This document shows positions 1-43,738 of a stretch of 64,000 bases of DNA, one piece after another. Numbering within the stretch: the stretch's first letter is position 1; every line of letters begins with the position of its first letter. Made by a program: the position numbers and the translations under genes. This stretch comes from Chitinophagaceae bacterium (lineage in GTDB: Bacteria > Bacteroidota > Bacteroidia > Chitinophagales > Chitinophagaceae). Where the stretch lies: assembly GCA_021151685.1 (NCBI GenBank), contig JAGKWS010000004.1:15800-79799 (forward strand). The letters are read 5' to 3'. The notes below the pieces were generated by a model. That model was not told the DNA's origin, searched no databases, and saw only the letters and a list, made by a program, of their open reading frames with translations.

Positions 1-3000
1 TAACGGCTACTTTATAGCTACCATCGCCACTTACAGGCAGGCTCCATGATGTGCCACCTGTAACCGGTAACAGATTTTTGTACCACTGGTAGGTTACATA
101 ATAGTTGCCGGTATACACTGCGTTAGTGCCGTTGTAAGCCACTACAGGGTTGGGCAGAGGTATGTCGGTAACGGCTACCGAGCTGGAAATAGGTGCGCAG
201 CTTGCCGGTACCGATACTACACAGTGGTAGGTGCCGGGGAGGGTAGCACTGTAAGTAGCACCTACTGCGCCCGGTACCGGAATGCCATTGCGGAACCACT
301 GATAACCCAATGCAGTACCGAGGTACGATACGTTTGTAGAGAGCAGGGAAGAACCACCCCAGCAGAAACGTGCAGGAGTGAGCGGTACTGCTGTAACGGT
401 AGAGATAACAGTTACTACGGTGTCGGCAGCGGTAATGCTGCTACAGCCCGTAGTTGCGTTGGTAACACGTACCCTGTAGCCGCCACTTGCGCTGGCAATG
501 TAGGTAGCATTGACGGCACCCGGTATTGCTACGCCACCTACATACCATTGGTACTGGAAGCCCGGTGCAGCATCGAGTGCCACAAAGCCACCAATGCAGA
601 AGATACGAGTGCCACCGGGTGTGATGGCTGCGCTGGGTACTGCATTAACCGTTACTGCCTGTGGAGTAGATGTAGCAGTGCAACCTGCACTGTTGGTTAC
701 CGTAACATAGTACCCTTCGGCCGTAGTAGCGGAGTACGATACTGATGTTGCACCGGCAATAGCACCTGTGCCATCGTACCATTGGTAGGTATAGCCTGCG
801 CCAGATGCGGCAGTGAGTGTAACACTACTGCCCGCACATATGGCCAATGGACCTGAAGCCGTAACCGTGTTGGATGGTATGGGGGTAGACGTTACTGCTA
901 CAGCGGCAGAAACTGCCCAGCAACCTGTGGCATTGGTTACGCGAACGGCATAACTACCTGTAGCAGTAGCATTGTAGGTGGCTGTATTGGCACCGGGTAT
1001 GGCTACACCACCAAGCTCCCACTGGTAGCTAAGACCAGTACCAGTATTGGCGTTTAGTACCACTGGTGTACCTGCACAGGTGCTGGTAGTGCCACCCGGT
1101 ACGGTAATAGTTGCAGTAGCTGGTGTTACGGCAACACTCATAGGTATGGAGGTAGATGAACAGCCAGATGCAATGCTAACCATTGCCGAGTAGCTGCCGG
1201 ATGCGGTAACTACCAACACGGGCGATGTGGCCCCTACAATAGGTGTGCCACCAGAGAACCACTGGTATGATACACTGGGTGAGGTGCTGACAGAAAGTGA
1301 TACAAAATCGCCGGGGCATATTACCGTATCGCCCAGTGGCGTGATAATAGCGGGTGGTGCGGCCGAGATAGTAACTACCGCTGTAGTGCTACAGCCAGTT
1401 GAGGTTTGTGTATATGTAATGGCCGATGTGCCCGAAGTAACACCTGTGTATGCACCAGTGCCGGCAACTATTGTAGCCACTGCGGTGTTGCCACTGGCCC
1501 ATGTGCCGGGCGTAGCGGCATTGGTAAGGGTGGCCGTAGAGCCGGGGCACAGTGTTGTAGGGCCGCCTATGGCCGGTGGCAATGCATTCACCGTCATGGT
1601 GCGTACACGCTCGCAACCGTTGGGTATGGTATAGGTGATATTGGCGGTGCCAGAGGCTACGCCATTTACGGTGCCGGTAGTGGCACCTACTGTAGCTATA
1701 GTGGTGTTGCCACTGGTCCATGTGCCGGTTGTAGGTGTGCTGCTGAGGGTAACACTGCTACCCAAACATACTGTAGAAGCACCGGTAAAAGTTGATGGGA
1801 GTGAGTTGACTGTAACGGTGCGTATAGTGCTACAGCCCGATACTGTGTAGGTAATGTTGGTAGTACCAGCAGTAACACCGGTAACAGTGCCTGTAACCAC
1901 ACCTGCAACAAATGGTGTGCTGCTGGACCATGTGCCACCAGTTGTAGTGCTGCTGAGTACTGTAGATGAACCCACACACACTGTTGCTGTGCCGGTAAGT
2001 GAGGCAGGCAGTGCATTTACAGTAACTACTACCGAGCGGGCACAACCATTGGTGCCTGTTGCGGTAATGGTGGCAGTGCCCAGGGCGTTGCCGCTTACCA
2101 CGCCTGTGGTAGCACCTACGCTGGCCACTGTAGTGTTGCTGCTGGTCCAGTTAAGTGGAGTTGTTGCACTGGTGAGTGTAGTGGTGCTACCCTGACATGC
2201 TATGAGGCTACCGTTAATGCTGGCTGGCAATGCCAAAACTGTTACTACCTGTGTGGTGATGCAGCCCGATGTGGGCAGTGTATAAGTAATGGTGGCTGTA
2301 CCGCCAAGTACATTTACACCGGTTACTACGCCCGATAAAATACCTACGGTTGCTACTGTAGTATTGCTGCTGGTCCATGTGCCGCCGGTGACAGGGGGGG
2401 TAAGAGTTGTTGTGCTGTTGGCGCATACCGATGCTGTGCCGGTTATAGCACCGGGTGTAGCGTCTACAGTGGCAATAGCTGTAACATTGCACCCAATGGC
2501 GGTGTAGGTAATAATAGTAGTACCTACGCCAGCACCTGTGAGTACGCCGGTACCGCTGATGGTAGCTACCCCTGAGGCGGAAGATACCCAAGTGCCACCG
2601 GCTGGGGTGCTGCCCAGTGCTGATGTGGCACCCACACATATATGCCTATCGCCAGTGATGGCAGATGGTGCAGGATTGACCGTAATGACAAAAGTACTGG
2701 TACACCCGGCTGGTGTAGTGTAGGTGAGTGTGGCTGTGCCTACCGACACACCGGTGACTACACCGGAAGTGAGCCCTACTGTGAACCGGGCAGTATTGCT
2801 ACTGGCCCATGTGCCACCCACTACTATGTTGCTCATGGTTACTGTACCGGTAGGGCAAACAACGCCACTGCCTGTAATATTTTCAACAGAATCTACCCTA
2901 ATGGTGCGGATAGTAGAGCAACCGGTGAATAGTTCATATTCTACAGTATCTACACCGGGGCCGGCAGATGAATATATGCCCGAAAACAAATCGACACTAC

Positions 3001-42281: not shown

Positions 42282-43379
42282 ATGGCAAGTTTTACATTGC
42301 GGATGAAGTCTGCACCAGTGTTGCAGTTATTGTCGGTAACCGCATTGGCGGCGGTTTTGTTATTCTCGTCCTCCTGCGGAAAACGAAGCTGCAACGATGC
42401 TGCGGAGGCACCCGCTGCCAATGCGCCGGTAGTTACAACGGCAAAGGCAGGCTTGCAGCAGACATTGTCATCGGTAGTAACGGTGGCAGGTATACGGCCT
42501 ATAGCAGGTAGTAGCGATGTGGAGGTGTTTTTCAACGAAAACACACAGTTCTTTAATGCTTCGGGCGAGGCATTGATAAACAGGGTAAAGGAGGCTTTGG
42601 AAACCGGCCGACCGTTGAAGATAGCATACAACCCATGGCAGGAAGTATTGGTAAGTGCCGCATGGGCAACCGATGCCGGCAACCAGCAGGCAAAAGCCCG
42701 TACCATAGTAGATGGCAGGGCAGGTATGCGTAAAATAGACCTGAGTACTATGACCAATGCGCAACTGGATGAACCATCGGCAATGGGGGTTATGAACACT
42801 ACCGACCCCGGCCTGAACAATGTGATACCAGACTTTGCTACGGCACAGCTTATGTTCGACTACATATGCCGCCAGTGTTGTGCATTGCCCGGCCCATATG
42901 CGGTAGACTACTGTATACCATTTCAGTATTGCAGAGATGGTTGCTATGCCCGTGCCCACAAAATGTGCTGGATTATTAACAACCGTTACAAATATGGCAC
43001 CAAAAAAATATTCAGCTTTGCCAATGCCGGTACCGACAAACTATGTGTACAAGGCCAGAAGTGGGGTGGGTGCTGCATACGCTGGTGGTACCACGTAGCC
43101 CCATTGGTTACCATAAAAACGCCTACCGGCCCTAAAGCCTATGTGTTCGACCCGGCTATGTTCAATCAGCCTGTATTATTGTCTACATGGCTGCATGCGC
43201 AGGAAAACCCGGCTTGTGCTACCTCATCAACTGTTGCACATGTAACCATGATTAACGTTCAGCCTAATTCGTCATACACACCGTCAGGCTCAACAGGCTA
43301 CGTTTTTGGTACAGACCCTGTATATAGCTCTACCAATACAACACTTATCAATTATTCGGCACTTACTACATGTCCATAA
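42282..43379 (+). CDS. Protein-glutamine glutaminase (protein deamidase) prepro-enzyme, lipoprotein
   Basis: Lipobox FSSSC; pro-domain; mature region VIPD...CI.FQY..DGCYARAHKM...CC..W.YHVA...FDP matches the Chryseobacterium protein-glutaminase pattern. Triad codons: Cys 42942, His 43092, Asp 43149. Confidence 0.88.
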   Translation: MASFTLRMKSAPVLQLLSVTALAAVLLFSSSCGKRSCNDAAEAPAANAPVVTTAKAGLQQTLSSVVTVAGIRPIAGSSDVEVFFNENTQFFNASGEALINRVKEALETGRPLKIAYNPWQEVLVSAAWATDAGNQQAKARTIVDGRAGMRKIDLSTMTNAQLDEPSAMGVMNTTDPGLNNVIPDFATAQLMFDYICRQCCALPGPYAVDYCIPFQYCRDGCYARAHKMCWIINNRYKYGTKKIFSFANAGTDKLCVQGQKWGGCCIRWWYHVAPLVTIKTPTGPKAYVFDPAMFNQPVLLSTWLHAQENPACATSSTVAHVTMINVQPNSSYTPSGSTGYVFGTDPVYSSTNTTLINYSALTTCP

Positions 43380-43399: not shown

Positions 43400-43738
43400 A
43401 TGATAAGCTCAGCAGTGCGTATATGCCTGCTGGGCTTTCTTCTTTTGGCAATAGCATTTGCACCTGCTTCGGCTATGGCAAAGAAGAAAAAGAAGAAGAA
43501 CACAGGGAAAGAACCGGTTGAGTATGCCCTTACGGTGGCACAGGTGCGCCCGGCACAGCCCGGCGACCAATATGCCGAGGTGACATTTCTGGAATCGGCC
43601 AGGTTTTATAGATTGCCCCGCAATGCCGACCCTGTTTATCTTGAATTGCTGAAAAAATCTCAGGAGCAGCACATACAGGTATTGGTGAAACGGGCCAATG
43701 AATACTCTGATGTAATACTCCGTGTTAGAAAAAAATGA
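43400..43738 (+). CDS. Small secreted protein resembling the protein-glutaminase pro-domain
   Basis: Signal peptide then TVAQVRP...AEVTFLESARFY...YLELLKKS, aligning with TVAGIRP...VEVFFNENTQFF...LINRVKEA in the upstream gene. Start at ATG 43400 (track 43370). Confidence 0.7.
   Translation: MISSAVRICLLGFLLLAIAFAPASAMAKKKKKKNTGKEPVEYALTVAQVRPAQPGDQYAEVTFLESARFYRLPRNADPVYLELLKKSQEQHIQVLVKRANEYSDVILRVRKK

Follow-up and report, generated by a model that had tools for sequence, protein, structure and literature searches.

A stand-alone homologue of the protein-glutaminase pro-domain, encoded directly downstream of the enzyme gene, is a candidate inhibitor in trans

Stand-alone, propeptide-like inhibitors are already known for proteases. 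Spi, a propeptide analogue from Streptococcus pyogenes, is encoded next to speB and has been suggested to have a protective role (Kagawa et al. 2005, cited in PMC2873492), which would consist in shielding the producing cell from enzyme that is active where it should not be. A subtilisin propeptide-like inhibitor of the Plasmodium protease SUB1 likewise stands alone and acts in trans (PMC6993865). MEROPS families I9 (subtilisin type, e.g. the SUB1 propeptide-like protein) and I29 (cathepsin type, with crammer and CTLA-2) represent the general principle of a pro-domain paralogue that works in trans. In the literature, we found no description of a stand-alone pro-domain or a protein inhibitor of protein-glutaminase (PG), an industrial food enzyme, nor of a stand-alone propeptide-like inhibitor of other protein deamidases or of transglutaminase-fold enzymes. 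The pro-region of Chryseobacterium proteolyticum PG is an N-terminal extension that is removed by proteolysis. Reportedly, the pro-region loop that joins strands 2 and 3 covers the active site and mimics the substrate, with Ala47 lying just above the pocket, and the structures of an A47Q mutant are said to represent an enzyme-substrate complex and an S-acyl intermediate.

We analysed a window of 64,000 nucleotides (the whole stretch of DNA under study) from a Chitinophagaceae bacterium, in which a PG gene is directly followed by a small gene (Table 1). By sequence and modelled fold, the small protein is a free-standing homologue of the PG pro-domain, and it belongs to the PG pro-domain superfamily. 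It shares with the Chryseobacterium pro-region (PDB 3A56; A47Q mutant, 3A54 and 3A55) the same fold (rmsd 1.5 Å), detectable sequence homology and the loop that joins strands 2 and 3, in which an Ala again occupies the position of Ala47. However, the small protein is the product of a separate gene, has no linker to a mature domain, and coexists with a PG that still bears its own pro-domain; because it is not part of a precursor, it lacks the defining feature of a pro-region. It also has features of its own when compared with the Chryseobacterium pro-region, namely a near-invariant E-S-[A/Q]-R-F-Y motif and a conserved segment spanning strands 4 and 5. Like Spi, the small protein is small, is homologous to the pro-segment of a Cys-His enzyme (a papain-like one in the case of Spi) and is encoded beside the enzyme gene, and reading it as an inhibitor would follow the same protective logic. 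In contrast to Spi, to which it has no sequence relationship, its target would be a protein deamidase rather than a protease, and the pair is exported in Bacteroidota; physical binding and inhibition of PG are here what we infer. The principle is also that of I9 and I29, which differ from it in fold, in sequence family and in the class of enzyme, and no Pfam model of either family matches the small protein. While stand-alone propeptide-like inhibitors of proteases are not new, the application of the principle to a protein deamidase would be, as would the natural alternation of Ala and Gln described below.

Table 1. Features of the PG locus within the window.
Feature	Position	Strand	Evidence or remark
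Divergent T9SS-sorted protein, 489 aa	40628..42097	-	YD/RHS-like repeat match, Por_Secre_tail (Pfam, NCBIfam)
PG lipoprotein precursor, 365 aa	42282..43379	+	PF18626, E 5.8e-25
PG lipobox Cys32	42375-42377		invariant
Cis pro-domain of PG, aa 61-128	42462..42665	+	hhalign; AlphaFold2 secondary structure
Loop of cis pro-domain, F-F-N-E-N-T-Q-F-F	42528-42554
PG catalytic domain	~42813-43376
PG Cys221	42942-42944		invariant in PG alignment
Alternative in-frame ATG of small gene	43370		would give 122 aa; overlaps PG stop codon/last codons
Stand-alone PG pro-domain paralogue (small gene), 112 aa	43400..43738	+
Signal peptide, small protein aa 1-25	43400..43474	+	ends APASA before M; read from sequence
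K6 run, small protein aa 28-33	43481..43498	+	read from sequence
OB-like pro-domain core, small protein aa 40-112	43517..43735	+	AlphaFold2 model, Foldseek
F-L-E-S-A-R-F-Y motif, small protein aa 63-70	43586..43609	+	spans loop between strands 2 and 3
Ala67 codon	43598-43600
Downstream exported ORF, 298 aa	43735..44631	+	ATG overlaps TGA of small gene (ATGA, 43735-43738)

The small open reading frame, the peptides quoted from it, the signal peptide and the run of six lysines were all present as described in the original prediction. The protein begins with MISSAVRICLLGFLLLAIAFAPASA, followed by M, six lysines and a domain of ~73 residues. In the window and in the closest relatives, the signal peptide ends in A-P-A-S-A before M, with none of the lipobox Cys that would mark a lipoprotein; many other Bacteroidota homologues carry an L-x-S-C lipobox (S-C-A or similar). 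We observed that, among the Bacteroidota members of the family, the signal peptide or lipobox Cys is immediately followed by a conserved run of 4-6 lysines, and that the PG, too, has K-rich residues after its lipobox Cys; lipoprotein sorting and membrane contact are both possible roles of the Lys run.

We identified 34 homologues of the small protein at 90% clustering, and an exhaustive HMMER search yielded ~49 clusters at 50% identity, whose members are 70-146 aa long in all but one instance. That single exception, a protein of 4550 aa with matches scattered over 19 short stretches, was taken as spurious. The core of the family is strongly conserved in alignments of homologues, and dN/dS of the small gene is ~0.1 (calculated against three relatives, synonymous sites being saturated in four other comparisons). 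We conclude that the open reading frame is a real, conserved gene. We rejected the notion that it is the remnant of a pseudogene on the grounds of this dN/dS and because it has a signal peptide and conserved motifs of its own. The window's small protein had no significant match in Pfam, NCBIfam or PADLOC, including the curated inhibitor families in these collections, and Pfam gave no meaningful match for any of 66 members of the family.

The neighbouring enzyme appears, from its sequence, to be intact, since the Cys-His-Asp triad (Cys221, His271 and Asp290, all invariant in the PG alignment) is kept. The only Pfam family detected in the PG was PF18626, and PADLOC gave no matches. The NCBIfam model for protein-glutamine glutaminase scored below its cut-off and covered the mature part alone, and matches to PDB entries 3a56, 2ksv and 8z3i (E ~1e-19 to 1e-21; ~5e-21 for 3a56 and 2ksv) were likewise confined to the catalytic part, residues 190-376. 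In an AlphaFold2 model of the PG, residues 61-128 repeat the order of strands and helix seen in the small protein with pLDDT of 75-92; the mean pLDDT of the whole model is 55, and we used it solely for the strand and helix order of the pro part. The window's own genome has one copy each of the PG gene and the small gene.

The homology between the small protein and the PG pro-region is marginal when judged from a single pair of sequences: BLASTP of the small protein against the N-terminal region of the upstream PG gave 32% identity over 34 aa (E 0.005), and phmmer against PDB gave one unrelated match (E 2). Comparison of the two families bore out the parallel to the enzyme's own pro-region that the original prediction had drawn by eye. 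Aligned with hhalign, the families matched with a probability of 95.1% (E 3.2e-8, 54 columns), residues 39-96 of the small protein corresponding to residues 61-114 of the PG. An HMM of the small-family core matched the pro-region in 119 of 120 PG homologues, 67 of them at E<1e-3 and the best at 6e-8. In the other direction, tblastn with the pro segment of the window's PG found the small genes of other loci, with E down to ~5e-6. When the small-family profile was searched against all PDB sequences, the sole matches were chains of pro-PG (3a56 and 3a54; E 0.022), and the aligned stretch, chain residues 34-77, falls within the pro-region. The resemblance to a Chryseobacterium pro-peptide pattern that the original prediction had pointed out thus has a basis in the deposited structures.

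The fold is also that of the pro-region, as far as a predicted structure can tell. AlphaFold2 modelled residues 40-112 of the small protein with pLDDT of 94-98, as an OB-like barrel of five strands and one helix (strand 1, 40-50; strand 2, 58-63; strand 3, 69-73; helix, 78-90; strand 4, 93-98; strand 5, 105-111). We compared this model with the whole PDB using Foldseek, the very check that had been proposed for the pro-glutaminase structure, and the top match was pro-PG 3a56_B (E 6.7e-4, rmsd 1.5 Å, 76 columns), which we placed in the pro-region from the profile alignment, as the Foldseek output gives no target range. Hence, the fold is not a different one. Foldseek also listed the Flavobacterium PG 8z3i, and the remaining matches are generic OB folds (toxin B subunits, eIF5A).

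Profile alignments to 3a56 and to the A47Q chain both place Ala67 of the small protein on Ala47 of Chryseobacterium pro-PG, that is, on chain residue 47, the exact position at which the deposited mutant chain differs. In these alignments, the family motif F-n-E-s-A-R-F-Y falls onto S-F-M-L-T-A-Q-F-Y of the Chryseobacterium chain, and in the AlphaFold model, Ala67 lies in a loop (residues 64-68) between strands 2 and 3. Across 66 members of the small family, F63 is present in all 66, and S66, R68 and Y70 in 65 each. Thus, conservation in the free protein peaks in the active-site-mimic loop, whose motif, S-[A/Q]-R-x-Y, is near-invariant in these 66 members from several phyla. Position 67 itself is Ala in 41 members, Gln in 20, Ser in two, Glu in two and Asp in one. 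The equivalent loop of the attached pro-domain, compared across 80 Bacteroidota PGs, is looser and different: F-N-E-N-[A/E/T/Q]-[E/Q]-x-F, with A in 42, E in 21, T in 14 and Q in two at the variable fifth position. Judging from these alignments, the residue at the centre of the loop in the free protein is either Ala, which is no substrate, or Gln, the very residue that PG deamidates. We take position 67 to be the site that Ala47 occupies above the active-site pocket, going by the reported role of Ala47 and by the titles of the PDB entries.

The small gene was found directly downstream of the PG gene, on the same strand, in 32 of 32 public genome loci (one genome per species scanned), and directly after PG in four of four contigs as well. 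In all 32 loci, it is a separate open reading frame with its own start after the PG stop codon, and the window's copy has its own signal peptide. All 32 loci are Ala-type because the search patterns contained ESARFY; the context of Gln-type members was checked through P0019 alone (locus L043), where the small gene likewise follows PG. Every copy of the small gene with readable surroundings adjoins a PG gene, and none is an orphan. We also examined 251 genomes sampled from the bacterial family of the window, among them the window's own. The small gene was present in seven and the PG domain in 34, and in all seven, again counting the window's own, the small gene lies ~200 bp after the PG domain. 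Conversely, 27 of the 34 PG-bearing genomes have no small gene, including one (G008) whose PG is of the same subfamily; since most PG genes occur without it, the small protein is dispensable for PG as such. We conclude that the small gene is an accessory to PG. In G008 (locus L008, G008:C94), the T9SS-sorted neighbour and PG are followed by an unrelated 325-aa open reading frame in place of the small gene; G156 (G156:C212), which is of the same genus, has PG with the small gene, so that the presence of the small gene is polymorphic.

Beyond the pair, the surroundings are less constant. The divergent T9SS-sorted protein is encoded in 18 of 20 Bacteroidota-type loci, the contigs of the other two ending just upstream of PG, and also in L001-L003, L008 and L043, of which L008 has no small gene. 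Three contigs from the protein collection share the order divergent T9SS-sorted protein, PG, small gene, with differing wider flanks, and a cultured strain, Nemorincola caseinilytica JCM 32105 (L001, L011), has this trio of genes. The T9SS-sorted neighbour could be a partner or a substrate of PG. In the non-Bacteroidota loci, it is absent, and the small gene is still linked to PG. The 298-aa open reading frame downstream has a weak match to Por_Secre_tail, the T9SS C-terminal domain (E 0.11). Homologues of it follow the pair in only five of the 32 loci (L013-L016 and L026), and we therefore rejected a three-gene operon as the unit. Neighbours in two other loci examined are unrelated. In one Acidobacteriota chromosome (L036), a gene for a 687-aa trypsin-like peptidase (72-2135, minus strand; Trypsin_2, E 6e-11) lies divergently upstream of a cytoplasmic pair; in this one locus, it is possibly an activating protease.

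We detected the pair in Chitinophagaceae (Nemorincola, Flavipsychrobacter and Taibaiella) and in metagenome-assembled genomes of Acidobacteriota and Planctomycetota. In the latter two phyla, the PG is ~310-350 aa long with a pro-like domain of its own, the small protein is 74-93 aa long, and both are without a signal peptide. We scanned the hydropathy of the N-termini and found a signal peptide in either both proteins or neither in all 28 pairs for which both N-termini were readable: both in 19 Bacteroidota-type loci and neither in nine others (four of the 32 loci are outside this count because the PG side was unreadable, owing to a truncated contig or frame). The small protein and the PG are thus predicted to share a compartment, and co-variation of their predicted localisation is what would be expected if the two must meet. 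The periplasm had been proposed as the place of action; since the pair has no signal peptides in non-Bacteroidota, where it would be cytoplasmic, this location holds only for the Bacteroidota lineage of the window, in which both proteins would be exported. Every linked PG with a readable N-terminus keeps its own pro-domain, as judged by HMM match or by reading of the N-terminus. A further genome of the same bacterial family encodes a signal-less, 349-aa PG-like protein with no small gene downstream (L007 1804-2853, G096:C61), so cytoplasmic PGs also occur within Bacteroidota. This protein has one weakly detectable pro-like domain (residues 90-151); two tandem pro-like domains were considered for it and not confirmed, one weak match being all that was found.

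The original prediction also spoke of a "liberated" pro-domain. From an alignment of 75 columns, we constructed a maximum-likelihood tree that comprised 32 free domains and 20 attached ones, the latter being those detectable by the free-domain HMM. The two kinds of domain split on a single branch with 100/100 support, and this split extends across three phyla. Hence, the free domain arose once, long ago, and then travelled with PG, and we rejected a recent local duplication of the 5' end of the neighbouring gene.

Homology, fold, the loop equivalent to Ala47, a PG gene always just upstream and matching localisation signals sustain the idea of a stand-alone copy of the pro-domain, and these properties, together with the conservation of the loop and the single old origin, all fit a propeptide-like inhibitor acting in trans. 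By analogy with SpeB and Spi, we give slightly better than even credence to the reading that the small protein is a trans-acting pseudo-substrate inhibitor of PG. In this mechanism, the free OB-like domain would dock on the catalytic domain of its PG in the manner of the attached pro-domain of Chryseobacterium pro-PG, and the S66-A67-R68 loop, which joins strands 2 and 3, would cover the active-site pocket, with Ala67 over the pocket of Cys221. Ala67 would sit at the place of the substrate glutamine, and it could not be deamidated. Any PG that had shed or otherwise lost its pro-domain while still within the producer would thereby be silenced by the small protein, in the periplasm or, in other phyla, in the cytoplasm. 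The Gln-type members, ~30% of the family, may bind as genuine substrates or become trapped in the form of acyl-enzymes. A further proposal, which we consider unlikely, is that the family comprises two flavours of active-site-directed deamidase inhibitors, the Ala-type members being non-covalent pseudo-substrates and the Gln-type members being trapped by the catalytic Cys as a thioester acyl-enzyme. Three observations speak against inhibition: PG already has a pro-domain of its own, so that the need for a second copy is argued rather than demonstrated; most PG genes occur without the small gene; and Gln67 in ~30% of members suits a substrate equally well.

We considered whether the small protein might bind PG in the manner of a pro-domain with a main job other than inhibition, as a folding helper or stabiliser in trans or as a membrane tether. 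Pro-regions of secreted enzymes are, as is generally known, often intramolecular chaperones; gene linkage and matching localisation would fit such a role equally well, and, because both proteins are lipoprotein-like in many Bacteroidota homologues, they could share a membrane. However, the linked PGs with a readable N-terminus retain their own pro-domain, which would make a second foldase redundant; close relatives of these PGs also manage without the small gene, as in L008, and the conservation is strongest in the active-site-mimic loop, which points to occupancy of the active site. We consider this role unlikely. The same loop argues against an OB-fold protein that does not bind PG at all, sharing with it only ancestry and operon and binding instead, for example, the T9SS-sorted neighbour, a glycan or the envelope. 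Such a role could be read into the generic OB folds among the remaining Foldseek matches, and the K-rich tail and the positive charge could serve to bind components of the envelope, but the small gene stays with PG in non-Bacteroidota loci that have no T9SS neighbour, and we regard the idea as distinctly improbable.

Variation at position 67 raises another possibility, that the small protein is a substrate, a switch or a decoy: PG might convert Gln67 to Glu, or the small protein might compete with the attached pro-domain for the activating protease, and in either way it would tune activation or report activity. The 20 members (out of 66) with Gln and the two with Glu are consistent with this, as are the usual gene context of the Gln-type member P0019 and the trypsin-like peptidase gene that adjoins the pair in one Acidobacteriota locus. 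On the other hand, the window's copy and 41 of the 66 members have Ala, which is not deamidatable, and no protease gene was consistently linked to the pair in the loci examined; we think this quite unlikely. That the small protein is an immunity protein, either against PG-type enzymes of competitors or against a PG that is itself an effector, seems to us hardly probable at all. The order of enzyme and then small binder is like that of effector-immunity pairs, and the cytoplasmic pairs of Acidobacteriota and Planctomycetota are formally similar to these, yet neither PG nor its neighbours matched any domain of secretion systems, toxin trafficking or defence in Pfam, NCBIfam and PADLOC. Hence, the suggestion that the small protein blocks the enzymes of rivals found no footing in the gene context. 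Moreover, there is no orphan small gene, PG being beside every copy with readable surroundings, and the window's PG is of the Sec/lipoprotein type with its own pro-domain.

If the small protein is a substrate-mimicking inhibitor, its co-inheritance with PG suggests that the activity of PG endangers the producing cell and is restrained, and the small protein offers a route to the role of PG in the cell. A specific inhibitor or stabiliser of PG could also aid its production, purification and control. The alternation of Ala and Gln at the pseudo-substrate position would be a natural repeat of the engineered A47Q substitution; if there are indeed two flavours of inhibitor, the Gln-type members would be the natural counterpart of engineered A47Q pro-PG. 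PG and the small protein together would then form a self-contained, tightly controlled module for protein deamidation that has moved between phyla and between compartments.

Four contigs with the pair (L020, L025, L030 and L031) are labelled as Asaia bogorensis, Bordetella parapertussis, Azoarcus and Xanthomonadales. Two of the four have a T9SS neighbour of the Bacteroidota type and a PG that is ~82% identical to that of the window, and the labels of these metagenome-assembled genomes are probably wrong, or the contigs mis-binned.
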